DNA of 64,000 bases from an uncultured archaeon (GTDB lineage: Archaea; Thermoplasmatota; Thermoplasmata; Thermoplasmatales; Thermoplasmataceae). The position numbers were made by a program, and so were the translations under genes. Of this stretch, positions 1,867-58,778 are shown in pieces (the first letter of the stretch is position 1; the number at the start of each line of letters is the position of its first letter). Below the pieces are notes generated by a model. The model was not told where the DNA came from and did not search any database. It saw only the letters and a program-made list of their open reading frames with translations. Where the stretch lies: positions 64,001 through 128,000 of the forward strand of contig CP009479.1 in the NCBI GenBank assembly GCA_000965745.1. Reading direction: 5' to 3'.

Positions 1867-2509
1867 TGGCAACACTTCCCACATATATAGGTGTACTAAG
1901 CTGTATGGCCGGATTTATCTTCACTTTGGCGGTCTGGACCATGGCACTGTAGGCCGCAAGGGCGTAGTTCACTGTTGTTTTAGTGTGTCCGCTTGCAAAT
2001 CCCCACGCATCATCAATTCCAGCCATGGAAAGGATTGTCTTTGCCACGTCCCCTACTGCCCTTCCTACTCCTCTTGGGGCAGGCTTCATAGTGACAACCA
2101 CTGATCCTGATTTTCCCACTACCTGGAACGGGAGCGAGTGTGCTCTGCCGCATCCGCACTCCCAGGACCCGCAGCCTCTCCTGACTTCAATGACATGCAG
2201 CTTGGCGTTGTTGATTGCTTTCCTGATTGCGGGTGCAGCCTCCTTGGCCTTTCCCATCCCTACTCCCACGAAACCGTCACCGTTTCCGACGGCCGCAGTG
2301 ATTGAGTAGTTCATCCTTCTTCCTGAATCGGTCATCCTCTGGGCCCTCTCGACGTTTATGATCTCGTCGCTGAGTTCCGGCAACAGATAATCGACAATCT
2401 GGTATTCCCTCAGTGGAAGCTTTGTCCTGAGAGCTTCTGACATGGTTTTTATCTCGCCCGTTGCGACTAATTTTCCCAGTTGTGTCCTGGGAGTCCATTC
2501 CTCACTCAT
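1844..2509 (-). CDS. rps5: 30S ribosomal protein S5 (uS5)
   Basis: WTPRTQLG...QRMTDSGRR...[11 protein letters not shown]...PAPRGVG. Confidence 0.98.
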
Positions 2510-2994
2510 AGTGATTCCTCCAATTTGCTCTTAGCTTCTTCAATGTTAATCACGGATTTCTTGAGATGTTCTCCCTTGATTCTCGACTCATCAGGGAATA
2601 TCTTCTCATCATACGGGATCTCTATCCCTGCATCCACGAACCCCTTGAGGGCAGCAGATATTCTCCCGCCTGTGGTTATGTTGTACCTGCCTGTATCGAG
2701 TATGGCACTCCCGACGTTCTGTTTCTTTGCCTTGAGGCCGGTTGCATAGCCAACCAGGTATGATATGGGCGTGTTGTTCCCCAGTGTTTCGAGCCCAAGC
2801 TTCTTCAGGCTCCTGTCAGTTACTGTCGATATGACCCTGTCGCCTTCCGGGCTGAATGATATAACCTGTGCGCTTATTCCCCTGTGGGTTGGCCTTACAA
2901 CGAACCTTGGTGTCTCGGATGATACCATCTTTAGCCTCTTGTGATAGTTGGTCTGCCCTGATCTCCTTCTCTTTAGGACTCTCGGTGTCTTCAT
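2506..2994 (-). CDS. rpl18: 50S ribosomal protein L18 (uL18)
   Basis: RRRSGQTNYHKRLK...ILDTG...GGRISAALKGFVDAG..IP...RIKGEH. Confidence 0.96.
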   Translation of the reverse strand: MKTPRVLKRRRSGQTNYHKRLKMVSSETPRFVVRPTHRGISAQVISFSPEGDRVISTVTDRSLKKLGLETLGNNTPISYLVGYATGLKAKKQNVGSAILDTGRYNITTGGRISAALKGFVDAGIEIPYDEKIFPDESRIKGEHLKKSVINIEEAKSKLEESL

Positions 2995-3446
2995 TGTTCA
3001 CCACCCATTTCGCCAGTTGACTTAAGATGGCTCTGGAGCTGTGCCCTTGATTTTATTGAGCCGCCCTTGATTACCCTGTACATTTTCCTGTATGTCTTTG
3101 CGTCTATCTTTTCCTCGGACTTGAGTTTCCTGAGCTCGTCCCTGAGTGGCCTGATGGTCTTGATCCACCTCTGTTTCCTTGGGAATCTTGCATATTTCTT
3201 CCCCTTTATGGAACCAGGGCCTCTCCTTCTTTCCTTGGACCTCTGTCTGATCCTTTTCTTCAGCCTGTAATTTGAATTTCCTTTCTTCTGCCTGATCTGG
3301 ATAACATTTCTCCTGATGAGGTACCTGATGTCCTCCCTGGAGGCTGCCTCAGCAACTTCCTCAACGCTGTTAGTGTCTATCCAGACTCTTGAGATTCCGG
3401 ACTTGAACTCATCAGCTGCTATCCTTCGTGCTGTCTCAATCTTCAT
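2991..3446 (-). CDS. rpl19e: 50S ribosomal protein L19e
   Basis: RRIAA...SRVWID...SREDIRYLI...[15 protein letters not shown]; start at MKIETA. Confidence 0.96.
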
Positions 3447-3852
3447 TTCTGACACCTCTGTTAAGCACCCTGACACCAAGCTCATCGGCTACTTCAAGCA
3501 TATCTTCCCTTTTTCTATCCCCAACTTTGGAAGATATTCTTGCTGCCTCAAGCTTCGGGTCAAGTGCCTCAAGGTCTTTCTCGTTGAATACCAGTACTTC
3601 CTTGAAACCTGAGGGATGCAGTCCCCTGACCAATTTGGGCGTCCTGTATCCTGCATCCACCATGGGGGGCTTTTTCTTCAAGTGCTCCCTCTGCTTTGAG
3701 TGCTTTCCCCTCGGCTTTCTCCAGGAATCTCCAAGCTTCTTGTACCTGAACCATTCCTGCCTGTGGAATTCCACTCTTTTCTTTGCCTGTTCGTTCTTGA
3801 TCTTGAGGAGCCTTTTCTGTTCCTTTGAAAGATGGGGTTTGCCTATTGACAA
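3436..3852 (-). CDS. rpl32e: 50S ribosomal protein L32e
   Basis: [25 protein letters not shown]...GLHPSG. Confidence 0.97.
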
Positions 3853-3853
3853 T

Positions 3854-4399
3854 CTACTCGCCTCCCTTTAGCAGGTAGATTCCATCCTGGAATATTCTCG
3901 GATCAAATCTCCTGATCTTTGTTGCTCTCTCTATGTTTGCCGAAGTCTCACCGATCTCTCTCTTGTCTATGCCTTCAATGGTAAGCCTGTCTCCCTTGAC
4001 GTTGACTTTCGTGTTTCCGATTATGTTTGCTATCCTTGCGGACCTCTCACCGAGGAAATTTTCCACCACTACGGCGTTCCCCCTCACGGAAACCCTCATG
4101 GGAAAGTGAGTGTAATCTATCTTCATGTGGTATTCGAAACCGCTCGTAACACCGTTTATCATGCTCTTGAGCTCTGAAGTCCAGGTGCCAAGGATACCGT
4201 TGTTCCTGCGGTTCTTCTTGCTCATGGTTATTTTTATCTTGCTGCCTTCGATCGAAATTCTGAGATAGTTGTCCGGGAGATTCCTCTTTACCTCTCCCTT
4301 CGGGCCCTTAACTGTAATCACAGTACCTGCCTGATTGGCAGTAACTCCCTCAGGAATATCGATCTCTGCTGCTTCTTCCCATTTCACCACTTGTATCAC
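3854..4399 (-). CDS. rpl6: 50S ribosomal protein L6 (uL6)
   Basis: VKGPKG...YTHFPM...NFLGE...[12 protein letters not shown]. Confidence 0.97.
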
Positions 4400-4789
4400 C
4401 TAATAGACGTATGCTATGAGTCTTCCCCCGAGACCCATCTTCCTTGCTTCGATATGGCTCATCACTCCCTTCGTTGTTGAAAGGATGAGTATGCCGAAAT
4501 CCTGGGCAGGAAGATACCTGGCTTCATACTTGTCCAGGTTTGCCCTTTTCACTGGCAGCCTGGGCTTGATAACACCACAGTTGTTTATGGTGTTGCTGAG
4601 CACTATCTTGAATTTTCCGCCTCTGCTGTCGTCCATCACTTCAAAGCTCTTCAGGTAGTTGTATTCCTGCATTACCTTCAGAACCCTGCCGATGAGCCTC
4701 GCAGCCGGCTCGGTTTCAATCTCTTTTCTGCCGATCCTTGATGCGTTCTTTATCACGTTGATTATATCATTTAACGGGTCGTGTTTCAT
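4400..4789 (-). CDS. rps8: 30S ribosomal protein S8 (uS8)
   Basis: INNCGVIKPR...YLPAQDFGILILSTTKGVMSH...GGRLIAYVY. Confidence 0.98.
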   Translation of the reverse strand: MKHDPLNDIINVIKNASRIGRKEIETEPAARLIGRVLKVMQEYNYLKSFEVMDDSRGGKFKIVLSNTINNCGVIKPRLPVKRANLDKYEARYLPAQDFGILILSTTKGVMSHIEARKMGLGGRLIAYVY

Positions 4790-4798
4790 TTGTTCACC

Positions 4799-4960
4799 TC
4801 AGCTGTATTTCCTGAATCCCAGTACGGGTGCAGTATCCCTGAAACACTGCCTGCACAGGCGAAGACCGTATCTCCTGACTAGGCCTCTTTTGCGCCCGCA
4901 TCGCTGGCACCCGTCCTTGCGTCCGAATTTTTTCTTAGGTTCAAGTTTGATTTGACTCAT
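4799..4960 (-). CDS. rps14: 30S ribosomal protein S14, zinc-binding type (not in the ORF track, 53 aa)
   Basis: Manual translation [53 protein letters not shown]; lies between rpl5 and rps8. Confidence 0.97.
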
Positions 4961-4964
4961 TGAT

Positions 4965-5480
4965 TCACCTTACCACCACGAGGCCGTACTTGCTGGTCAG
5001 GAATTCCATGGCCTCCTCCCTTTTTACCCTGATTTTTGAGGGCACCTTCTTTGCGCCTATCTTCCTCTTGTGGAGCCTGAAGCCTCCTTTCCTCTTGATT
5101 ACAACTGCAACGTCCATGCCGAATATTCCGATATTTGGATCGTACTTCATTCCCTTGAAATCAGTGTAATCGGCAACTCCGAAGTATGCGTTGCCCTGCT
5201 TGTCGAATGAATAGTGGGGAACCTTGTATTCCCTTGCATACAGAGCCCTCTGGAGGAATTCCTCAGCGTCTTTTCCCCTCAGCGTTACCTTTGTGCCTAT
5301 TGTCAGGCCCTGTCTTATGTTGAAGTCTCTCACTGTCTTCTTTGAGGTAGTGGTGACAGGAGTGTGCTTGGTTAGCATCTCAAGCACCTTCGTTGCCTTT
5401 GTGAGCCTTTCGCCCGCCTGGCCTACTCCTATATTCACAACTACCTTGTCGATAGTGATCTCTTCCATTGGGTTACTCAT
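4965..5480 (-). CDS. rpl5: 50S ribosomal protein L5 (uL5)
   Basis: [19 protein letters not shown]...[11 protein letters not shown]. Confidence 0.98.
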
Positions 5481-6195
5481 AGACTGCTACACCCCCTATC
5501 TTGGGTATCTCATACGAATACTTCGCCCCGCCTACGACAAAAGCGTAATCGGTGATTGTTGAGTATCCTTCCTCGAAGTGTATCAGGTTCTTGTGCGATG
5601 ATTCCTTGATCTCGATCTTCTTGATTGTGGCAACATTGCCGGCGTGCGATCCGCCTGTGAGGAATACCTTGTTTCCCGGCTGGAGCTTCATTACTTCCTG
5701 TATCTTCTTGCCGGGGATTGTCACCAGTGCTACATCGCCGGGTTTTACTTCCTTGTTGTCAGATACCACGATCTGCCCGTCATGGAAGCTGAGCTGGATT
5801 TTCCCGCCCTTTATTGTTGACTTGTCCATCACTTTCATGAGTTTCTTGTCGGAGTTATCCTTGCTCTCCTCTCCGAGAACGAGGCCGCCTTTCCTGTCGT
5901 ACAGGACCCGGAAGCTCTTTCCAACCTGGTCTATGGTAATGAGATCCATGAAGCCTACAGGATATCTCCTGTCTTTCACTATTTTTCCATCCACCTTTAC
6001 AAGGCCGTTTACCAGGATCCTTGTGATCTCCCTTTCCTTGTCTCCTATCTTGAGATAATCCCTGAGTGCCGTGAGGAGTGCCATTGAATCCTTTCTGTTG
6101 TGTTTGCCCGGCCTCGGGCTTGCTCCCCAGAAGAAGGTCTTCCTTGGTATCTTGACGGACCTTGATATCATCAGTCTCTTTGTCTTGTTGATCAT
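5473..6195 (-). CDS. rps4e: 30S ribosomal protein S4e
   Basis: PRPGKH...LRDYL...VKVDGK...YPVGFMD...GGKIQLSFHDG...TGGSHAG. Confidence 0.97.
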   Translation of the reverse strand: MINKTKRLMISRSVKIPRKTFFWGASPRPGKHNRKDSMALLTALRDYLKIGDKEREITRILVNGLVKVDGKIVKDRRYPVGFMDLITIDQVGKSFRVLYDRKGGLVLGEESKDNSDKKLMKVMDKSTIKGGKIQLSFHDGQIVVSDNKEVKPGDVALVTIPGKKIQEVMKLQPGNKVFLTGGSHAGNVATIKKIEIKESSHKNLIHFEEGYSTITDYAFVVGGAKYSYEIPKIGGVAVYE

Positions 6196-6704
6196 TCTTT
6201 TTCCACCTCTTCTTCTGTTTCCTCTTCAGTTTCATCAGATTCTTCTTCAGGCTCTGCTTCCATTACCTCAGGTTCCTCTCCTTCCCCGGCCTGCTCTTCC
6301 ACCGGTTCTTCAGGTGTCTCGGCTTCCGCCTCCCCCTCTTCTGCCTCTTCGGCAGGTTCAGGCTCCGGCTCAGGTTCGGGGACTTCCTCCACTACGATAT
6401 TCTTCCTGGCGGCAAGATCCTTTATCTTCTGGAGCCTCCCTGGAGACGAAAGCTCAAGCCTTGTTATTCTGAGTATATTGGAAGGCAGCAGGTATTCCTC
6501 CTGCTTGCCGTCCGATTTTGATATTGTGATTCCATCAATGGAGACTCTGGAGCTCTTGTGGTTTACCTTCATGACCTTTCCTCCTTCCCCTTTCCTGGAA
6601 CCTGTCTTGATTGTTACCACATCGCCGGATGCGATTGGAAATGACCTTATGCCGTATTTTTTCCTCAAATCCTTGCTCAATGCTACTCTTACCTTGTTTT
6701 CCAT
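6192..6704 (-). CDS. rpl24: 50S ribosomal protein L24 (uL24) with a long acidic C-terminal tail
   Basis: LSKDLRKKYGIRSFPI..GD.V....G..KG..GKV (KOW); Glu/Pro-rich tail. Confidence 0.95.
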   Translation of the reverse strand: MENKVRVALSKDLRKKYGIRSFPIASGDVVTIKTGSRKGEGGKVMKVNHKSSRVSIDGITISKSDGKQEEYLLPSNILRITRLELSSPGRLQKIKDLAARKNIVVEEVPEPEPEPEPAEEAEEGEAEAETPEEPVEEQAGEGEEPEVMEAEPEEESDETEEETEEEVEKE

Positions 6705-6716
6705 ATCCAACCGACC

Positions 6717-7115
6717 TCACACTATTGTGGAGGCTACCGAGGCAATCCTTGGCCATCTCTCTGCAGCCTCTCTTGCTACGGGGCCTTTGATTTCGGAGCC
6801 TCTTACCTCTCCTTCTGGAGTGACAAGAACTGCTGCATTGTCATCAAATTCCACCATTGTGCCGTCCGATCGCCTGTAGGGCCTTCTCTGCCTCACTACG
6901 ACCGCGTATACGACTTTGCTCCTCATTTCGGGAGTTCCCTTCTTCACGCTTGCTATGAACATGTCACCTATACCGGCGGCAGGTATTCTCCTTGCAACGC
7001 CATGGTATGCCTTCACGCCAATGAGGCTGATTATTTTCGCACCGCTGTTGTCTGCACAGGGTACCACAGCTCCAAGCGGGAGCCCTCTTTGCTGCCTTCC
7101 AGCAATGCCTTTCAT
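6717..7115 (-). CDS. rpl14: 50S ribosomal protein L14 (uL14)
   Basis: CADNSGAK...[10 protein letters not shown]...FDDNAAV...[14 protein letters not shown]. Confidence 0.98.
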
Positions 7116-7447
7116 GGGTTCACCTTTTCAACTACCACGAAGGAAACCGTCTTTGCAAGTTTCCTGCACTCTGCTATCTTGACCGTGTCGCCCGGCTTAA
7201 CCTGGATGCATTCAGGAACGTGCGCATGATACTTTGAGAAGAGCGTCAGCTTTCTCTCGTATTTTGGAAGGTACCTCTGATGGGTACGCTTTATCACTGC
7301 GCTTCCATTCATCGCGGGAGACTCGACTATTCCGCCGATGATCTGCCCCCTTATTGAAAGAGTTCCGTGAAAGGGACACTTCTGATCGTTGCATTCCTGT
7401 TCCGGAAGCTTTACATCTAATCCTATGTTTCTGGCCACCTTAATCAC
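7112..7447 (-). CDS. rps17: 30S ribosomal protein S17 (uS17)
   Basis: [10 protein letters not shown]...PKYER...[14 protein letters not shown]. Confidence 0.97.
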
Positions 7448-7748
7448 CGTTTATTATACCGTTTCTCAACATTTTCCCAATTCTTCTTCGTTCCTTGATG
7501 CGATCTTCTGGTCTGAATACCGCGTAACTTCCATTGATTGTGAATTTTTCCTCTGTTGTGGCGAGTTCGAAGACCCTGCCACTTTTGACGATCCTCTTTA
7601 CCCCGTTTTCCTTTCTGAGTTCTACAGTGTTTTTTGTTTCATTGCACAGGGTTCCGGCTATACCGTTCTCTGCCGGATTCGGTGAACTAATCACCTTCGC
7701 ATTCAATCCTATCCATTCGTGGAAATACACATTATCCTTGGTAATCAA
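7440..7748 (-). CDS. rnp1: Ribonuclease P protein component 1 (Rpp29/POP4)
   Basis: HEWIGL...G....ETKNT...RPEDR; canonical operon position. Confidence 0.92.
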   Translation of the reverse strand: MITKDNVYFHEWIGLNAKVISSPNPAENGIAGTLCNETKNTVELRKENGVKRIVKSGRVFELATTEEKFTINGSYAVFRPEDRIKERRRIGKMLRNGIINGD

Positions 7749-8048
7749 TTAAATCAGCTCTGCCCTGAATCCCATGCTTTCAAGCTGTTTCTTGACAGTA
7801 TCTCTATGGTCTCCCTGGAGTTCTATTGTTCTCCCGTCCTTTACAGTTCCACCCGAAGCAACCTTTTTCTTCAGCAGTTTGGCTATCTCGTCGATGTTCT
7901 CGCTCTTGGGGTCGATCCCCTCGATTATTGTCACATTTTTCCCGTATCTTCTTTTGTCCACGCTTATCCTCACTGCCTGAGTATCTCTTGTAAACCCTTC
8001 CCAAGGTTGCAATTCCTTGGGTATTCCTGTGAAGTTCTTATCCTTCAT
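7749..8048 (-). CDS. Translation initiation factor aIF1 (SUI1 homolog)
   Basis: DKRRYGK.VTIIEG...LKKKVASGGTVK...IELQGDHR. Confidence 0.96.
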   Translation of the reverse strand: MKDKNFTGIPKELQPWEGFTRDTQAVRISVDKRRYGKNVTIIEGIDPKSENIDEIAKLLKKKVASGGTVKDGRTIELQGDHRDTVKKQLESMGFRAELI

Positions 8049-8248
8049 TCCTTTTGATCCTCCGAACCCATAACGGTCTTTATTCTGGCTATTTGTCTCC
8101 TTATTGACTTGATTTTCCCGGGATTCGAAGGCTGGCCTCCAAGAGCCACGGTAGCCCTCTCATGGAGGAGGGATTCTCTAAGCTGATCCAGAGCCTTTTC
8201 CCTCTCTTCACTGCCCATCTGTTTCAGTTGTTTCGCTCTTAGCTCCAT
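8045..8248 (-). CDS. rpl29: 50S ribosomal protein L29 (uL29)
   Basis: LRAKQL...[20 protein letters not shown]. Confidence 0.96.
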
Positions 8249-9374
8249 TTTCCTCTACCCTACCTTCATCTTTCTTTACTTCCTCGGCCGCTTCCGGCTT
8301 TGGCTCTTCTGATTCCTTCTTTTCTGCCTTTTTCTCTGATTTCTTCTCAGTTTTTTTGGTAGTTTTCCTGGGAGCTGGTTTTTCCTTTACGGCTTCCTTT
8401 GGCTCTTCAGCTGGCTTCTCTTCCACAGGTTTTGTACCTTCCGCCTTTGCTTCAGGCTCCTTCACTTCAGGTTTTGCCTCTACTTTCTTCTCCTCAGCCT
8501 GGGGCTTTACCTCTTCAGCCTTTACTTCGGCTTCAGGTTCCTTCACTTCAGGTTTTGCCTCTACTTTCTTCGCTTCGGCTTGAGGACTTACCTTTTCCTT
8601 GGCCTTTTCAGCCTCTGGCGTGGGCTTTGCTTTTCTTTCAGCCGGCCTGGCCTGCCTTTCTTCAGGCTTCCTCGGCCTTCTTCCCCTGGCACCGGGCCTC
8701 TCTCTCTGCCCCTCAGGCTTCTTTGCCACTGCCTCTGCCTTTTGGTCCCCTTCCTGTATCAGCTGTGGGGTTGAAACTCCAAGCTTTTCAGATACGACAT
8801 AGTCGTCAGGGAGCTTGTAGTCGCTCTTGAGTATTCCTACTTTGACTCCAATCACGCCAAGCTTGAGCTTGGCAATTGAGAACCCTCTCTCCATTCCTTC
8901 CCTCGCGGGCTCTCCGGAGTACTTCACGGAACCGCTCATGAATTTCTGCATCCTTCCCCTCTCTCCTGAGAGCTTTCCGGATACTGAAATTATGACGCCT
9001 CTTGCACCGTTCTCAACGATTCTCCTCAGAGAAGTGTTTCCTGCCTTCCTGTACGCCCAGCCTTTTTCCAGTGAAAGGGCGATCTTCTTTGATACAACCT
9101 GTGGATTCAGGTCGGGATTGTCGATCTCCTTGACTTCAATCTGCGGTGATTCGATCTGGTACTTCTTTTCGAGATTCTCTGTGATCTGCTGGACCTTGGA
9201 GCCATGCCTTCCAATGACAAGGCCAGGCTTGTTTACGTGAAGTGTTATGTTGGTTCCGAATGGTGTCCTCTTCATCTCCATCCCTCCGAAACCGGCGTTC
9301 TCAGTCTCCTTTCTTATGTATTCAGAGACCAGCAGTTTCTTCACTGCCTCGTTGATAAACTTCCTCTCGTTCAT
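8208..9374 (-). CDS. rps3: 30S ribosomal protein S3 (uS3) with a ~190-aa K/E/P/A-rich C-terminal extension
   Basis: KH domain [10 protein letters not shown]; [10 protein letters not shown]; GVIGVKV; low-complexity tail. Confidence 0.97.
8449..8571. repeat. 42-bp near-perfect direct repeat (8449-8490, 8530-8571) in the rps3 tail, encoding [14 protein letters not shown] twice
   Basis: gcttcagg(c/t)tccttcacttcaggttttgcctctactttcttc occurs twice with 1 mismatch. Confidence 0.9.
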
Positions 9375-9820
9375 TCTTCTACCTCTTCAAGTACTATTTC
9401 AAGATTTATCAGGTCCTTGAAATTTGCTCCCGCTCTTCCATAGGCCTTTGGTGTGTATTTCTTAATCATTCTTCCCTTGGATGCTGCTATGTGCTTTACC
9501 ACGAGGGCATCCATGTTCAGGCTCTTGAATTCTGCATTGGCCTCTGCGTTGTCTATCAGTTCCCTGAATGCCTTTGCCGCTTTGACCGGGTACCTCCCCG
9601 GGCCCATTCCCCTTTTGTGTGAGACGGAATCGAGGTATCGGAAATAGGGGACAGGTGTCTTCTTTTCTATTACTCCGTCTATCAGATCCCTGACGCGCTC
9701 TAGCTTCTTTCCCCTGAGGAAATGGGCTATGTTGACCGCGTCCTTGAGGGATATGTCTGTCTCCTTTACCCTCGCAATGGCACTTTTTTCAGGTATTTCA
9801 GTTATTGAGTATCCTTTCAT
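9371..9820 (-). CDS. rpl22: 50S ribosomal protein L22 (uL22)
   Basis: ISLKDAV...VPY...GRYPVKAA...NAEANAE...PKAYGRA. Confidence 0.97.
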
Positions 9821-9824
9821 ATGA

Positions 9825-10280
9825 TCACTTCAGCGGCATGAACTTGGAGGACCTTGTAGCACCTACTCCCGGCCCGGAGTGCTTGACATCCTTCCTTGTA
9901 GGAGCAAATTCCCCAAGGTAGTGGCCTATCATTTCCGGCCTGATCTCAAACTTGACGTATTGATTGCCGTTGTATACCTCGAGAACTTTCCCAACGTATT
10001 TGGGAAGTATAACGAAACTCCTTACATGCGTCTTGATGTTTGCCTCTGATCCTTCCATCTTCTCTTTCAGCTTGGCCTGCTCGTAATTGAAATCCCTCGT
10101 AAGGGACCTCCTTATTCTTGCAGGTAGTATTTCCAGCAGTTTTTCAAATTCGAGCGCCTGAAGTTCTTCAATGGTAAGCCCCTTGTATCTGAACTCCTTG
10201 GATCTTCCTGCCGCTACCTTCTGTGACTTTCGTGACCTTCTCTTTATGGATTTTACAGATGCCTGCTTTTTGACCGGCAT
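9825..10280 (-). CDS. rps19: 30S ribosomal protein S19 (uS19)
   Basis: VYNG...PEMIGHYLGEFAPTRK.V.HSGPGVGATRSSKFMPLK. Confidence 0.98.
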   Translation of the reverse strand: MPVKKQASVKSIKRRSRKSQKVAAGRSKEFRYKGLTIEELQALEFEKLLEILPARIRRSLTRDFNYEQAKLKEKMEGSEANIKTHVRSFVILPKYVGKVLEVYNGNQYVKFEIRPEMIGHYLGEFAPTRKDVKHSGPGVGATRSSKFMPLK

Positions 10281-10975
10281 TAACTCTTCCTCCTCTTCTT
10301 GGGTGAAAGCCTGCCCACCTTTCTTCCGGGTGGTGTGCCTCTTCCTACCGTGCTCGGGCGGCCCACATGCTGGTGGTTACCTCCTCCATGCGGATGTTTA
10401 ACGGCATTCATTGCCACACCTCTCACGGAGTATGCTTTTTTCGCCCTGCTCTGATAATAGTGAACCTTTCTTCCTGACTTGAGTATCGGTATATCCTTCG
10501 CCCCTGTTCCTGCTATTGTCCCCATGCTTGCCTTGCAGCCTGGATGGAACTGCTTTGTCTTTCCCGACGGAAGCTTTATCGTGACGTTTACGCCATGGCT
10601 TATCACCAGTGCGCCTGTCCCTGCAGTCCTGCAGAACTTGCCTCCATCTCCGGGGATGCTCTCGATGTTGTAAACGGTTGTTCCATCAGGGATTCTTCCA
10701 AGTGGAACAGTGTTTCCCATAGTGACCTGGTCCGATTGGCCGATGTTGATTTTCTGGCCGACGTGTGCGCCGACGAATGCTATCTGGTAGTGTTTCTTTC
10801 CGGTTTCATCCTGCAGCACCAGCACGGGGGAGCTTCTCCCCGGTGACTGCCTGATGTCAACCACTGTGTATGCTCCTTCAGAAGGGTGCCTGATGTCTGC
10901 TACGTGCCTGTGGCTTGGGCTTCTGTATACTATGCCCCCTTTACCCCTTCTCTGAGCCGTTATTAATTTACCCAT
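10280..10975 (-). CDS. rpl2: 50S ribosomal protein L2 (uL2)
   Basis: MGK....QRRGKG...[22 protein letters not shown]...PPGRKVG. Confidence 0.98.
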
Positions 10976-10984
10976 TCATACACC

Positions 10985-11233
10985 TCAGAATATACCCATC
11001 CTACCTGCGACTTCGTCTGCAGAGTAGTCTTTTGTGAGTTTCACGATGGCTTTCTTTCCGTTCTTAGTAATCATGATGTTAACCTTTTCAACTTTTACGT
11101 CAAACCTTGCTTCGACTTCTTTTATGATGTCTTCTCTCCTGGCTTTTCTGTTCACCAGGAATGTGATCTTGTTTTCCTTTTCTGTCTGAAGGGTTGTTTT
11201 TTCTGTTGCGACGGGAGATATGATGATTTCCAT
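10985..11233 (-). CDS. rpl23: 50S ribosomal protein L23 (uL23)
   Basis: P..TEK...ENKITFLV...VKVEKVN...KKAIVKL. Confidence 0.97.
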   Translation of the reverse strand: MEIIISPVATEKTTLQTEKENKITFLVNRKARREDIIKEVEARFDVKVEKVNIMITKNGKKAIVKLTKDYSADEVAGRMGIF

Positions 11234-11998
11234 TTACTGTACCCCCTTGCCCACCTGCTTAAGTGCACTTTCCGTAAACACGACGAGTCTTCCTGCCTGG
11301 CCTCCGGGAGCAAGCTTCCTGATACTCAGGCTGTCCGGGGTTGCCACCTCGACACCTGGAAGGGACCTGTATGCCTTTAGCGAGTCTGCTGAAGTGCTGA
11401 CGAAGAGAATGCTTTTCGGCTGCTTGTACCTTCTTCCCCTCATAGTTCCTCTTCCAGCCCTGACTTTCTTTCCTTCCTTTGCCCTGATCAGGTCGTCAAG
11501 CAGTCCCACTGATTCAAGGAAATTTTCTACGTCCTTAGTCTTAGTGATCTTGGCAGCTGCGTCCTCAACTATAACTGGAAGGGTGATGCCTTCTGGAATC
11601 CTGTGCCCTCTCCTGGAAACTGCCTCATTTGATGCTGTCATTGCAAGGGCGCTCATTCTTGCAAGCTTCCTCTCTTTCTCGTTTATCTTCTTCGTGAGGA
11701 TTTTGGTGGTCCTTGGTGAGTGAGCGCTCTTTCCGCCCACCATTGATGCGAGTATTACACCCCTGGATGAACCTGATGTTCTTGGTATTCTCGACACGCC
11801 TCTTCCGGGCCCTGAGTTGTGGCCTACTCGCCTCATTCCTGCCCTTGGTGAGGACCCGTATGGGCTCCTGAGGGAAAGGGTAACTGCCCTGAAAGCCTTC
11901 CTGATGAGGTCTTCCCTTGGAGCAGTGTTGAACACTTCCGGAAGTTCGATCTTCTTTACCTTTTCTCCTTCAATTGAGTATAGATTTGATTTCAACAT
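11234..11998 (-). CDS. rpl4: 50S ribosomal protein L4 (uL4)
   Basis: GPGRGVSRIPR...KKINEKER...RAGRGTMRGRRY...LAPGGQAGRL. Confidence 0.97.
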   Translation of the reverse strand: MLKSNLYSIEGEKVKKIELPEVFNTAPREDLIRKAFRAVTLSLRSPYGSSPRAGMRRVGHNSGPGRGVSRIPRTSGSSRGVILASMVGGKSAHSPRTTKILTKKINEKERKLARMSALAMTASNEAVSRRGHRIPEGITLPVIVEDAAAKITKTKDVENFLESVGLLDDLIRAKEGKKVRAGRGTMRGRRYKQPKSILFVSTSADSLKAYRSLPGVEVATPDSLSIRKLAPGGQAGRLVVFTESALKQVGKGVQ

Positions 11999-12987
11999 TA
12001 ATCACCCTGCTTTGATTCCCTTGAAACATAGCTCAGTGTAAGCGAGTCCACTGAAGCAACTCTCTGCCTTGCCGGGTCTCTGAATTTGACAAGTCTCTTT
12101 GAAGGCCCCGGAACCGATCCGTGTATGAGGACGTAGTCGCTTCTGACTAGCCCGTATCCGGGGAAGCCTCCCTTGACATTGATATCATCCCCGTTGTCCT
12201 TTGGGGAATATCTTAGAACTCTCATGTTGTGGAACGTTCTCTGGTGTGTACCCATCTGGCCCGCCTGGGGCACAGTGTTTCTTACCCAGTCCGGGTGCCA
12301 TGGTCCCAGTGTTCCTATCATTCTTCTGTGCTTGCTGTTGTGTATATTCAATAGCTTTACACCGAATCTCTCGACATGGCCGGTGAAGCCTTTTCCTTTC
12401 GTGATTCCCGTGACGTCAACAAATTTTCCCTCGCCTGAAAATTCAGAGAAGCTGATTGACTTTCCAAGCTTTTCCTGGGCATACTTCAATTTTTCATCGT
12501 TTGTTGCGCCTGAGACGTTAATTTCAAAAATTTCCGGTGTTTTTGACGGAACACCCGTAACAACCTTCGGGTTTGTGCTTACTATGAGCCTTACACTGGA
12601 GAAGTCCTTCGGAACCTCCTTCTTCTTGTGTTCCTTTGCCTGTGGCTTTCTTCGTGCCAGGGACTTGTCCGGATTATCTGCCCACTGTTCATAAGCTACC
12701 TTCAGTCCTTCATAATCTTCCTTGTAGAGCCTTATGCCTACAACTGCAAGGGGAGGCACCTCTACGACTGTAACCGGAGCAACTATGCTCTGGCCTGCAG
12801 TAACGCTGGACTTCCTGTAGTCGACCATTTCAACATGGGTCATGCCTACCTTGTAACCGGCAAAGGCCTGTACCTTTGCCGGCCCTTCGGCTACCGGCCA
12901 GCTTCTTATGTCTCCCTGCATTCTCTTTGTGCGTACTCTGGGATAGTATCCTTTAGATCCTCTTCTAGGATGATGGGGCGTTGCCAT
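11998..12987 (-). CDS. rpl3: 50S ribosomal protein L3 (uL3)
   Basis: PRRGS..YYPR.R...GYKVGMTH...TKGKGF.G...PQAGQMG.HQRT...GSVPGP.KR. Confidence 0.98.
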   Translation of the reverse strand: MATPHHPRRGSKGYYPRVRTKRMQGDIRSWPVAEGPAKVQAFAGYKVGMTHVEMVDYRKSSVTAGQSIVAPVTVVEVPPLAVVGIRLYKEDYEGLKVAYEQWADNPDKSLARRKPQAKEHKKKEVPKDFSSVRLIVSTNPKVVTGVPSKTPEIFEINVSGATNDEKLKYAQEKLGKSISFSEFSGEGKFVDVTGITKGKGFTGHVERFGVKLLNIHNSKHRRMIGTLGPWHPDWVRNTVPQAGQMGTHQRTFHNMRVLRYSPKDNGDDINVKGGFPGYGLVRSDYVLIHGSVPGPSKRLVKFRDPARQRVASVDSLTLSYVSRESKQGD

Positions 12988-12993
12988 TACGTA

Positions 12994-13090
12994 TCACCTG
13001 CAAACCGTTACACCTGTTTCTGGCAATGAGAAAGACATTGCCGAACAAGGGATGCCACATTATGCATTGCCCTGAGTGTATGGTGTTGCC
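12994..13090 (-). promoter_or_regulatory. Structured 5' leader of the r-protein superoperon (candidate r-leader) ending at the SD AGGUGA
   Basis: TATA-like TTTAAATA at 13113-13120 (minus strand); three nested helices found by eye (see findings). Confidence 0.6.
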
Positions 13091-13201
13091 TGAAAAGGAT
13101 AACTTACCACTCTATTTAAAGATTTATAACTGCACTTTCCGCCGGGATAGGCGGTACGATGGAATATTGGATATCCCTCTGATTGGTATGCTGGAAGGAG
13201 T

Positions 13202-14416
13202 TCATCCTTTTCCTCCCGCCGGCATAACTTCCCCTTTTTTCATGGCTGGACCTACTTTCCTTATTGTGGTCGACAAGTAGAGTATAACCGAGACGAAACC
13301 AGGGGCTGTGACCGTAGTCCATATGAGGAACGGATTCAGGGTCGCAGTTATTACTATGCCCCCGATGAGAGGGCCTATGGAGTATCCGACTGAGTTGAAC
13401 GAGTTGTAAACGCCCATGTTGGCTCCAATCCGCTTTTTGGCAGATATTCCTGACACAATTGCAGATCCGCTCGGATCGAGGAAGTCTTCACCTAATGTTA
13501 TGATTGCCTCTGAAACGATGAACTGTGGAACAGTTGAGTCGAAAGCAAATGAGAAAACTCCAATCGAGAAAAACAGTAGTCCGAGCAGGTATCCCCTTGC
13601 AACACCTATCCTCCCTATTGCCTTAGTCACAGGGTATTGCATCAGGACCACGAGGATTCCATTGGATGTGAACACCAGACCAATCTGTGCAGTCGTGAGA
13701 TTCCTTACAATTGACGCATAGTTCGGAAGAGTCACGGTGTCCTGTGCAAGCAGTATTGTGAGCAGAAGGCTTGAGAACGAGAGCATGATTATCGTCCTGT
13801 TCACTGTACGGAAACGGAATTTGCGTTGTGGTTCCTCTTCGCCTGTTTCAGTAGGATGATCTCCTACAGGCTTGAAGATCAGGGATAGTACCAGCCCTGC
13901 AAGAATCGAGAGGAATGCCGAAAGGTAAATCACGGGATAGCCGAATCCGAGTATCAGGAATCCTGCAACAGCGGGGCCTATTGCTGTTCCTACGTTCAGG
14001 GCCACTCTTGTGATCGTGAAGCCGACAACCCTGTCACGGGTCGATGTTGCGACAAGCGCACCAAATGAAGGGAAGCTTCCCCAAAGCGAGGCAGCGAGGA
14101 TCAGAAACAGGAGAGAGAAAATGACTACGTTGTGCACTGAATGTGCAACATAATAGAGACCGATGAGGGATGCGGCTCCAATTGAATACATCGTTACAAG
14201 TACAGGTTTGTGGCCTATCCTGTCTCCAAGCCTTCCTGTGTAGATCTGGAGTACGGCGCCTGAGAGGTTTGAGAGCGTAAACACAACGCCAATCAGGGTG
14301 AAATCCAACTTGAATTCTGCGTGCATAAATAATGAAGTGAATGACTCTACCGAGTACAGTGCAAAACCGAAAAACCCCAGGATAAGGGAGAGGGTGATTA
14401 TCCTTGGCAGAGCCAT
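13202..14416 (-). CDS. MFS transporter
   Basis: GRLGDRIGHK motif A; ~12 hydrophobic segments. Confidence 0.9.
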   Translation of the reverse strand: MALPRIITLSLILGFFGFALYSVESFTSLFMHAEFKLDFTLIGVVFTLSNLSGAVLQIYTGRLGDRIGHKPVLVTMYSIGAASLIGLYYVAHSVHNVVIFSLLFLILAASLWGSFPSFGALVATSTRDRVVGFTITRVALNVGTAIGPAVAGFLILGFGYPVIYLSAFLSILAGLVLSLIFKPVGDHPTETGEEEPQRKFRFRTVNRTIIMLSFSSLLLTILLAQDTVTLPNYASIVRNLTTAQIGLVFTSNGILVVLMQYPVTKAIGRIGVARGYLLGLLFFSIGVFSFAFDSTVPQFIVSEAIITLGEDFLDPSGSAIVSGISAKKRIGANMGVYNSFNSVGYSIGPLIGGIVITATLNPFLIWTTVTAPGFVSVILYLSTTIRKVGPAMKKGEVMPAGGKG

Positions 14417-14609: not shown

Positions 14610-14683
14610 GGGTCCGTAGCTTAGCCAGGTAGAGCGATGGACTCTTAATCCATAGGTCGGGGGTTCGAACCCCCTCGGACCCG
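14610..14683 (+). tRNA. tRNA-Lys (CTT)
   Basis: Acceptor stem GGGTCCG/CGGACCC; anticodon arm ATGGA-CTCTTAA-TCCAT; T-arm GGGG-TTCGAAC-CCCC. Confidence 0.97.
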
Positions 14684-42171: not shown

Positions 42172-45100
42172 ATGAGCGTGAAAAATAAAATAATTTTTTC
42201 AATTATTATTACAGCACTCATGCTCCTGTCGGGGCTGAGCCTAATCGACACGGGTCTTGTTCACAACAGCTCAGGAAACAGTGCTCAAGCTAATCCATCA
42301 GTCACAAAAACCTATACCCTGACCTTCAAGGAGACGGGGTTGGAGAATTTGTTCCCCGGCTCAATGAACTGGACTTTAGTTCTCTGGAACTATTCTGGTT
42401 ACATCTACTACTTTTCCGGTACTCATGGGACTGTGAATGTAACACCCGGAACGTACAACTATCAGGCAACTGACTATTTTGGGCAGAGTACCCCCTATTC
42501 ATCTACCTTTACTGTAAGCTCGAACATGACTTTCAATGTCAGCTTCACTTCCCCGCAAAAGTTGGTCTTCAGCGGGGCTGGCTTGAGCAGCCAGTACTCC
42601 TGGGGAGTGATTCTTAAATCATTCTACGACAATGTGTATACATCCAACAGTACAGTGAAAGGAGGTTCCAACGTAGTTTACTACGGTATTCAAAGCAGCT
42701 ACTCCTACAGCTGGTACGAAGTCAAGAACGGCGTTAACACGACGATAGGAAGTTCATCAATCCAGATAGGGGCCGGAAGCACAGACTTCACCTTCAAGTT
42801 GCCCTTGAACGTTTTCAGCAACGTTACGGTCAAGTCAGGCACCCTTCCTGCAGGCACGAAGTGGTTCTTGATCCCGGTGGATTCCACTGCTTCAACTGTC
42901 TATTCAACAGGAAGTTCGGTCAATCTCACTCTGGAAAATGGCCCACACACATATGAGTATGGCTATGTGCTTCATAACGGCCAGAATATTGACATAGCAA
43001 ATGTGACGCTTGACTCCGGGGCGGTTAGCTCTTACACGCTTAAGTTCCCGTCCCTGACGAATGTTTCCTTCAAGCCGGTTTCGGCATTTCCAGCTTACAC
43101 TTACTCATGGGGAATAATGGGGAAGTTAGCATCCTCTGGGATTACCAACACATTCAATATTTCCTCCGCCACAATTCTAGAACCTTACGCTTTGCTTCCT
43201 GACGGCGCAGTAAATGTAACTCCGTACATAGTTCAGGGCAATCTGACTGGCCCCAACGGGGGAGGGTACGGAATACTTTCCTCATCCTACAATATCAACG
43301 TTTCCAGCTCCACCGCACTGCAGCAAGTGACTATCCCCAACTACAACAAGGTTACAGTCAAGGTAAACGGGATACCTTCTGGAACATATGCCACCATTTC
43401 AGGCATTCCGGGAAAACTCTTCGCTTACTCTGCCAATGTCCTTCAGGGGCAGTCATTCAGTTTCCTTGCACCCAACGGCAAGTACGCTTTCAAGTTGAGT
43501 CTCCCTAGCTACTACTATGAGGGATTCCAGTTCAATGTCACAGCAGGGGGAAGTTCGCAGACGACGAGCCTTGCATTGTACAATATCACTTTCCCCGCTC
43601 CTTACACATACACGACATTCTCTGTTGATGTGTTCGGTTATGAGCCCTATGATATTGTGTCCAGCGGAACTTCCACGCCAGGCCAACCCTTCTTCGTGTA
43701 CCTTCCAAACGGCACATACTCATACTATGACGTTGTGCAGTCTGCGGGACCTAGTGGCCTTTTTGTGCCAGATTCTGGCACGTTCAAGGTAGCAGGTTCC
43801 TCTGCCACGGTGAAACAGAATTTTCCATCCAAGTTCTACAATGTGACTGTAAAGGCCAACAACCTGCCGTCCTCGGCGAAGTGGAGTGCGTTCTTATCCT
43901 CAAGCACAAGCAACATTGAAGGAGTAACGAATACTACGTCGGGCGCAGCGTCGTGGGTATGGCTCCCCGCGGGACAGTATTACTTAAGCGTACAGTCCGC
44001 CCAGAATTCGACACAGTACTTCATGTCCAACTACAGCCTGGTCACGGTGAGTTCTTCTGGATCAAACATATTTGACCTGAATCTCACACCGAATTCCTAC
44101 ATCACCTTCTCGGAATCCGGCCTTCCGTCCGGAGCTTCCTGGTCTGTGACCTTCAACGGGAAAACCTACACCTCGAGTGCTTCAAACATAGTAACTTCGG
44201 TAGACATGGGATTCCTGACAGGGTCTTATCCCTTTGAAATCGGCAGCATCAACGGGTATTCATCAAATCCGGGATCAGGATACGTTAACCTGTCTGCAAA
44301 CTACTACCAGTCGAATTTTGAAGTGCCGGTTATCTTCACCCCGAACGGGCTTCCCGGCCAGCATGTGAGCATGAACACCTACACGCTGTCTGACCAGAAG
44401 CTCCAGACAGGCTCCTACTTCAGCACAAACCAGAAGGTTTCAGGCAATGCAATAGCATTTGACAGCGGAAGGGGAAATGTCTACATAGGGGAAACAAACC
44501 ACGGCGTTGCCGGGATAGCTGTCCTCAATTCCTCGACCTACGCCTTGAAGGATAACATTACCCTTCAGCAGGGAGGGAAGATACTCAGCATGGTTGTGGA
44601 CCAGTCCACCGGTTATCTCTACGCATCATACAGCTACAAATACTATTACCACATAGTTTCAGTGAATCTTGACACCTTTTCAGTGACGCTTACAACCGGA
44701 AATTTCGACTCTCCCGTCAGCCTGCTTGTTGATCCCGCAAACGGAGTTCTCTATGCGGCTGGCCAGAGGAACATCTATGCCCTTAACCCGTCATCTCTGG
44801 CAGTTGAGTCTGCCATACCGGTTCAGAATGATTTGTACAACAATTATTACTCGGCCTACAACCCTGAGCCTCTGTGGCTTGAGTACTCCAAAGCTACCGG
44901 GATGATTTACGCGACAGGGTACACCTTCAACAGCATACTGGAAATAAACCCGGCAACAAACACCATAGTGGGGAATTACAGTTTCGGTCCTGTGCCAAAT
45001 AGCTTTGAATACATTGGAGGCTCCCTCATTGACAGCGCCAACGGAAACATATACCTCGAGGTCACAAACACAGGTACATCCTACTCCCTTAGTTCACATC

Positions 45101-57995: not shown

Positions 57996-58718
57996 ATGCC
58001 AAAGAAGAAAGAAGAGCCCCTCTTCGTTGAACCAGAATTCAACGAGACAGAATTTATACGTGAAGAGAGAGAAAGAGCGAAGGCAGTGGTTGCCATATTT
58101 GTTATAGGCGCAGTCATAGGCCTTCTGTCAGGATATTTTAGTTTAATCGGGCTATGGTATTTTTCAATACTGCTCATCTTCATCTTCCTGCTTTTCCTGA
58201 GGATTATCCTCAATGCGCTAGGGATGCAGCTTCCCAAGAAAACGTCACACAAGATATTCCTTGTGGGTGAATTCATACTCACCTGGCTGATATTCTGGAT
58301 TCTCTTCCTCAACCCGCCGCTGCATGTGGTATCAGGTCCCCAGATATCCGATCTTCAGATGCAGACCTCCTCCGGATGGACAAATGTTCAGGAGCCAAAA
58401 CTGGACGTTTACAATCTGCCCGTATCGGATCACAGTGTAAGGCTCTACCTCAACTACAAGTACCCGATAACATCCGTTTCTGTCACGGAAGCTCAAGCGG
58501 GAAGTACGGCTAATGCTATCAAAGTGAATAGCAATTATGTGGGAGACCACGTGTACTTCAATATTAGCGGCAATGTTGGGCTGACAAATGTCTATGAAGT
58601 CACCGCGCATAGCGCCCAGGGGTCAAACACATATAAGTTCACGGTGAACTTCGTGGCCGCAACAAGCTCTATAGCACTTGCGGTCAATCCGAATCTTTTA
58701 AAAGCAGGTGTAGTGTAG
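57996..58718 (+). CDS. Conserved-looking membrane protein (3 TM plus an extracellular domain)
   Basis: P.FNE.EF...E.ER.K then TM helices, W...NPP; stop lies inside tRNA-Gly. Confidence 0.75.
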   Translation: MPKKKEEPLFVEPEFNETEFIREERERAKAVVAIFVIGAVIGLLSGYFSLIGLWYFSILLIFIFLLFLRIILNALGMQLPKKTSHKIFLVGEFILTWLIFWILFLNPPLHVVSGPQISDLQMQTSSGWTNVQEPKLDVYNLPVSDHSVRLYLNYKYPITSVSVTEAQAGSTANAIKVNSNYVGDHVYFNISGNVGLTNVYEVTAHSAQGSNTYKFTVNFVAATSSIALAVNPNLLKAGVV

Positions 58719-58778
58719 TCTGGTCTAGCACGAGAGCCTTCCAAGCTTTCAACCCGGGTTCGAATCCCGGCACCTGCA
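58704..58778 (+). tRNA. tRNA-Gly (TCC)
   Basis: Acceptor stem GCAGGTG/CACCTGC; anticodon loop CTTCCAA; T-arm CCGGG-TTCGAAT-CCCGG. Confidence 0.96.

Follow-up and report, generated by a model that had tools for sequence, protein, structure and literature searches.

The window, that is, the whole 64,000-nucleotide stretch of DNA that we analysed, carries on its minus strand a ribosomal-protein superoperon that begins with rpl3. ORF layout and Pfam assignments place the end of an MFS-type transporter gene at 13202 (−). Beyond it lie the TATA box of the superoperon promoter (TTTAAATA; 13113–13120, −), the minus-strand sequence GGCAAC..., which begins at 13090, the Shine-Dalgarno sequence AGGUGA (12994–12999, −), which is complementary to the 16S rRNA 3′ end ...GGAUCACCUCCU, and rpl3 itself (uL3; 11998–12987, −; ATG at 12987–12985). 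The TATA box, the Shine-Dalgarno sequence and the start codon were read directly in the sequence and lie where an earlier annotation of this DNA, made from its letters alone and referred to here as the initial annotation, had put them. The identification of rpl3 is based on its translation and on its homologues in relatives, which are full-length, share 47–83% identity and match without an internal stop; an in-frame UGA (12996–12994) stands immediately upstream of the rpl3 ATG. According to Pfam assignments and ORF layout, the rest of the operon (2506–11998, −) is co-oriented and tightly packed, with the gene order L4, L23, L2, S19, L22, S3, L29, SUI1, Rpp29, S17, L14, L24, S4e, L5, S8, L6, L32e, L19e and L18. 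The superoperon is a 25-gene transcription unit with a polycistronic messenger of roughly 13 kb.

Some of the operon products are longer than their recognised domains. In uS3 (8208–9374, −; 388 aa) the Pfam domains cover residues 17–181 only, and the C-terminal ~200 residues form a low-complexity tail rich in K, E, P and A. The Pfam domain of uS19 (9825–10280, −; 151 aa) begins only at residue 66, and the domain match of uL24 (6192–6710, −; 172 aa) stops near residue 97, each leaving an extension outside the domain. Elsewhere in the window, tRNA genes are found at 14610–14683 (+) and 58704–58778 (+).

In archaea, the distance from the 3′ end of the TATA box to the start site is usually about 23 nt. 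Combined with the position of the rpl3 TATA box, this spacing predicts a transcription start at 13088–13091 (−), a position inferred from the TATA box rather than mapped; the literature that we searched contained no mapped start sites for these organisms. The first transcribed bases would therefore be the foot of P1, a helix of the structured element described below, and transcription would begin there rather than near the AUG. Among 75 unique upstream regions, 64 had a TATA box that deviated at no more than one position, and in 42 of these 64 its 3′ end lay 23–28 nt ahead of the first core base of P1 (28 nt in the window). The TATA box was also a peak of conservation (0.67, against a background of 0.3–0.45). 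A rough check agreed with the earlier impression that many other genes in the window are leaderless: the distance from the TATA box to the first ATG was 20–42 nt in 8 of the 13 window genes with a recognisable TATA box, compared with 125 nt for rpl3.

Structure and conservation of the element upstream of rpl3

To describe the RNA between the predicted start and rpl3, we folded the 106-nt stretch that begins at 13090 and ends with the ATG. The minimum-free-energy structure (−30.3 kcal/mol) was a three-way junction occupying 13000–13090 (−), with the same three helices, P1, P2 and P3, as had been drawn in the initial annotation. The folding energy by itself was within the range of chance (z = −1.58; 14 of 200 shuffled sequences folded as well). 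It is the comparison with relatives that settles whether the junction is real.

The 5′ strand of P1 (13075–13089, −), delimited by the fold and by pair counts, is made up of a GCAA extension (13089–13086), ACC (13084–13082), an unpaired A (A13081) and UACACU (13080–13075). Its 3′ strand (13000–13014, −), delimited by the fold and the alignment, is made up of GGUGUA (13014–13009), the unpaired A13008 and C13007, GGU (13006–13004) and a UUGC extension (13003–13000). The core of P1 can thus be written ACC-A-UACAC / GUGUA-AC-GGU. It is interrupted by an asymmetric loop, with A13081 opposite A13008 and C13007, that is flanked by invariant base pairs, and the nucleotides C, A, A and C are invariant in P1. 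The initial annotation had drawn P1 with the GCAA/UUGC extension as part of the helix; the whole helix does form in the fold of the window, but the extension was seen only there and in the closest relative (same genus; locus L002) and lies outside the core. The P2 hairpin (13048–13073, −; fold and alignment) has an (A)GGG / CCC(U) base, a CAA bulge or loop on its 5′ side (13069–13067) and a UGC/GCA upper stem, and GGGCAAUGC of P2 is nearly invariant in most families. The P3 hairpin (13015–13047, −), defined from the folds of relatives, is variable in sequence and length and has a U-rich loop. No tandem G·A k-turn signature, that is, a three-nucleotide bulge followed by sheared G·A pairs, was present in the window sequence or fold. 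With the predicted start at the foot of P1, and with AGGUGA directly abutting the 3′ side of P1, the junction takes up nearly the whole predicted 5′ untranslated region and closes at the Shine-Dalgarno sequence, as had been proposed.

We then retrieved the rpl3 loci of 40 relatives through their L3 genes; 29 of these loci had a full-length L3. A recognisable copy of the element was present between the TATA box and the ATG in all 29 of these order-level loci, and each of the 29 folded independently into the same junction. With the trimmed elements aligned by plain MAFFT, 97.2% of the P1 and P2 cells were paired, as compared with 29–39% when the 3′ partners were slid by 1–3 columns. Both-sided changes occurred in 11 of 15 pairs, and the observed covariation score was reached by none of 500 shuffles. 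In this alignment, the P2 helices (helices 2 and 3) were paired in 98–99% and had both-sided changes in 5 of 6 pairs. A 78-sequence alignment gave 96.9% paired cells. In P1, ACC/GGU was replaced in a compensatory manner by GCC/GGC, CCC/GGG or GUC/GAC, UACAC/GUGUA by GACGC/GCGUC, and the inner end carried C-G to U-A changes at several loci of the same family. The P3 region gave one hairpin, of 6 bp or more, in all 73 unique sequences (median z of −2.8 relative to shuffles), with a sequence conservation of only 0.39–0.51. These results show that the element is real, conserved and structured. Conservation and covariation in relatives, whose absence the initial annotation had counted as refuting, were thus both found.

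The conserved sequence forms an island that extends from the TATA box to the ATG: conservation was 0.3–0.45 upstream, 0.67 at the TATA box, 0.63–0.83 in P1 and P2 and 0.8–0.9 in the coding sequence, with the 3′ strand of P1 (0.83) equal to the latter. The ..ACGG.. motif was the most conserved feature across the phylum. Conserved nucleotides were located in the helices and in two internal loops (the A opposite AC in P1 and the CAA of P2), whereas the junction strands varied in length and sequence among relatives, which gives the element the look of a protein-binding leader rather than that of a small-molecule pocket. We also considered that conservation might reflect a coding sequence; this explanation was rejected in view of the in-frame UGA before the ATG, the pair-wise compensatory changes and the small insertions and deletions within the arms.

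To follow the element further, we built a covariance model of P1 and P2 (R1). In the 2.23-Mb genome from which the window is taken, R1 had exactly one match, the element itself (13002–13086, −; 64.3 bits, E 6e-15; positions 77002–77086 of contig 1). Among the sampled genomes, 96 of 151 from the class (50 of 67 genera) and 70 of 151 from the phylum Thermoplasmatota (43 of 95 genera) had one match each, and all of the matches that we checked were upstream of rpl3 on the same strand. The range of the element includes the cultured acidophiles Oxyplasma, Acidiplasma, Ferroplasma, Cuniculiplasma and Thermoplasma. Judging from the sequences, the R1 counts underestimate this range: in three families with no R1 match (f15, f23 and f24), the representatives carry variants that keep ACC-A-.AC.. 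and ..CACGGU, so that the ..ACGG.. motif is retained even in variants that the model misses. In the I-plasma group (f3), the element takes a form without the CAA bulge. The GC-rich family f17 (loci L273 and L274) had no junction element, and its TATA box was only 27–45 nt before the rpl3 ATG, for which reason the leader appears to have been lost, or never to have been present, in this family.

Relation to RF03135 and other ribosomal-protein leaders

Rfam 15, riboswitch families included, gave nothing at E ≤ 10 on window positions 12000–14000, and at gathering thresholds only two tRNAs were matched in the whole window. Nor did the literature that we searched contain a described Thermoplasmata rpl3 leader. 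Taken together, the TATA spacing, the compensatory changes and the absence of an Rfam match make it a well-supported reading of the sequence data that the rpl3 superoperon has a conserved, structured 5′ leader, and the element almost certainly belongs to the rpl3 messenger. On each of the three points that the initial annotation had named as able to overturn its proposal, the result went the other way: the predicted start lies away from the AUG, conservation is present and no Rfam family covers the element. A covariance model of the element family would fill an annotation gap in Rfam for Thermoplasmatota genomes. The claim that this is a new archaeal r-leader stands in so far as the element is absent from Rfam 15, but it has its architecture, P2 motif and gene context in common with the RF03135 candidate (PMC7247131) and so is not an entirely new kind of leader.

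RF03135, of the known elements the one closest to that of the window, is the L4-Archaeoglobi ribosomal leader candidate, located upstream of rplC-rplD-rplW-rplB (Eckert & Weinberg 2020, PMC7247131). It was rated borderline because many of its members overlap a coding region, about half of them being inside an upstream methyltransferase gene (PF02598), far from rpl3, and its 'L4' label was assigned by analogy with E. coli, the ligand being a candidate only (PMC7247131). Members so placed need not be classical leaders, and by extension the window element might be a separate gene for a small RNA, or a stable product of processing, that acts in trans and merely lies beside rpl3. We regard this as barely credible, since the element has no separate terminator, the sole TATA box is common to the element and rpl3, and its orientation and adjacency to rpl3 are invariant.

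Both RF03135 and the window element are found upstream of an rpl3-led operon, on the same strand and in one copy per genome. Both are three-way junctions of ~85 nt. An asymmetric loop with A and C interrupts P1 ~6 bp below the junction, a 5′ (U)CAA loop comes after the GGG/CCC base of P2, and the long P3 arm is variable. By contrast, the sequence of P1 differs, being CUGA...UCAG in the outer and GCG/CGC in the inner part of RF03135 and ACC-A-(U/G)AC(A/G)C / G(U/C)GU(A/C)-AC-GGU in the window element and its relatives. The position differs as well: RF03135 lies 290–430 nt from rpl3, whereas the window element lies between genes, right against the Shine-Dalgarno sequence. In haloarchaea, RF03135 lies inside an ORF of 274–282 aa (L200:247–1095 and L165:2767–3591) that ends right at rpl3, which fits the published overlap with the PF02598 methyltransferase gene.

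Neither family was recovered by the model of the other. The RF03135 model (gathering cut-off, 34.5 bits) had no match at E ≤ 10 in window positions 12000–14000 or in the whole genome of origin, and scored above the cut-off in none of 151 genomes of the window's phylum, as compared with 86 of 151 genomes of Methanocella's phylum, which served as the positive control. Conversely, R1, run with filters off, had no match on six RF03135 loci that Rfam confirms, and it matched none of the 151 genomes from Methanocella's phylum. The two families therefore have complementary phylum distributions. The single RF03135 match in the window's phylum (L149:1501–1579, −; 27.2 bits) was considered as a bridging form and set aside as a probable false positive: it is below the threshold and GC-rich, and no L3 gene lies within 1.5 kb of it. 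A pattern scan of genome contigs for RF03135 gave mostly chance matches in GC-rich bacteria, and only the archaeal loci were used.

On these comparisons, the window element looks like a phylum-specific sister variant of the RF03135 candidate leader. The two families may have diverged from a single ancient leader that predated the split of the phyla, and may share one protein ligand; to this tentative proposal we give at best about an even chance. It is nevertheless more probable than the proposal that the P1 and P2 loops form a riboswitch-like receptor binding a growth-state signal across Thermoplasmatota, with RF03135 as its Halobacteriota counterpart, which seems hardly plausible. The two forms provide a natural experiment, in which either one ligand is met by two diverged RNA solutions or there are two ligands. 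The window element also helps the case of the RF03135 candidate, as it has the same architecture and is here intergenic, at the predicted transcription start and abutting the ribosome-binding site.

The leader of the E. coli S10 operon, which encodes L3, L4, L23, L2, S19, L22, S3 and L29, is a structured feedback target that is bound by L4. Both it and the window element are structured leaders that precede an operon with these eight genes. However, the two have no similarity in sequence or structure and the window element has no Rfam match, the archaeal operon does not start with S10, and the E. coli leader acts partly by NusA-dependent termination at an intrinsic terminator, a feature that the window does not have. 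Among archaeal ribosomal-protein genes, several conserved structured 5′ leaders have been proposed or shown to be autoregulatory. They include the Methanococcus L1 mRNA site and the L7Ae k-turn leader, as well as the candidates S15-Halobacteria, S15-Methanomicrobia and eL15-Euryarchaeota (PMC7247131). The S15, eL15, L1 and L7Ae leaders all differ from the window element in gene and fold, and none of them matches the window.

Proposed function of the rpl3 leader

The window element is best read as a variant, absent from the database, of an archaeal class of rpl3-operon leaders, and we consider its most likely function, with moderate confidence, to be that of a cis-acting r-leader regulated by a ribosomal protein encoded in the operon. 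To our knowledge, archaea have so far yielded very few cis-regulatory RNAs, none of them with demonstrated control over the main ribosomal-protein operon. With its compensatory changes, single copy and fixed position, the element is a strongly supported, phylum-spanning example.

Under such regulation, transcription would start about 23 nt past the TATA box, the first bases forming the foot of P1, and the leader would fold into a three-way junction that leaves almost nothing of the 5′ untranslated region outside it. A ribosomal protein encoded in the operon and present in excess over rRNA would then bind to the irregularities of P1 and P2. Candidate ligands are L4, by bacterial precedent, and L3, by gene position, and the evidence presented here does not discriminate between them. 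In the predicted fold of the free RNA, the ribosome-binding site is open, and the leader offers the Shine-Dalgarno sequence only 3–4 complementary nt for an alternative pairing. Since P1 in Thermoplasmataceae ends 1–6 nt before the Shine-Dalgarno sequence (GGUGA) and 12–19 nt before the ATG, the bound protein together with the locked P1 would prevent the small subunit from reaching the rpl3 start, and the repression would pass down the operon through translational coupling.

Direct occlusion of the ribosome-binding site cannot be a general mechanism, however, because in other orders of the class 33–105 nt, with additional predicted hairpins, separate the element from the ATG, and RF03135 lies 290–430 nt away. 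This variable and sometimes long distance would fit a mechanism that is independent of the start codon, such as one in which the element, standing at the beginning of a transcription unit of 25 genes, influences the elongating polymerase or brings in a factor and thereby affects processivity or attenuation over the operon. In E. coli, L4 acts partly by attenuation, which also speaks for a transcription-level element. Even so, we find this very unlikely, given that no U-tract or terminator-like feature follows the element in the window sequence and that in Thermoplasmataceae the element sits right next to the Shine-Dalgarno sequence.

The predicted start at the very foot of P1, which would leave the 5′ end base-paired, and the great length of the operon are also what would be expected of a 5′-terminal stabiliser, a helix that shields the ~13-kb messenger from 5′-to-3′ exonucleases without any feedback by a ribosomal protein. 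A stabiliser of this kind, however, needs neither invariant internal-loop nucleotides, nor base pairs kept throughout the phylum, nor a three-way junction of fixed geometry, and the family whose TATA box is 27–45 nt from the rpl3 ATG has no element there at all. As the sole function, stabilisation is therefore unlikely. It could coexist with regulation, and by burying the 5′ end P1 may protect the long messenger from degradation as well.

Resemblance to the rRNA site of the ligand is common, but not universal, among ribosomal-protein leaders. Searched with filters off against the 5S, 16S and 23S rRNAs of the same genome, R1 gave noise only. A scan of these rRNAs for a C-A / AC-G loop with flanking helices returned non-native pairings only, and neither the H18–H20 junction, which we take to be the bacterial L4 site, nor the H94–H97 region had any likeness to the element. 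Two sets of motif matches were not convincing as mimics. GUGACGG and CAUAC do occur at either end of 5S helix I, but their strand order is reversed and the helix there is uninterrupted; GGGCAA occurs once each in 23S and 16S rRNA, which is about the chance expectation. The rRNA genes themselves are single-copy and do not form a contiguous operon: on contig 1, the 5S gene (44954–45075, −) is ~310 kb from the 23S gene (355487–358406, +), and the 16S gene (367220–368689, +) lies ~9 kb downstream of the latter.

That these searches found no rRNA mimic would also be consistent with a riboswitch-like sensor, in which a small molecule, an ion or another growth-state factor of non-ribosomal nature sets the output of the operon, and the two conserved internal loops, being on neighbouring arms, could together make a composite pocket. 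The P1 of known riboswitches, which serves as the switching helix, usually varies. Here, on the contrary, P1, including its base pairs, is the most conserved part of the element, and the junction strands, with neither sequence nor length conserved, provide no conserved pocket at the junction. The element is, in addition, tied to a single operon per genome, and no riboswitch family of Rfam matches it. A riboswitch-like sensor thus appears highly improbable, and regulation by an operon-encoded ribosomal protein remains the preferred reading.

The spacing between the junction and the start codon was nearly constant in one group of loci from another order of the class (L050, L054–L057 and L060), at 81–82 nt from the junction to the ATG. 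In these loci, the spacer contains extra predicted hairpins followed by a GAGGGA-type ribosome-binding site, and on the basis of these predicted folds the hairpins may constitute a second leader module in those lineages.
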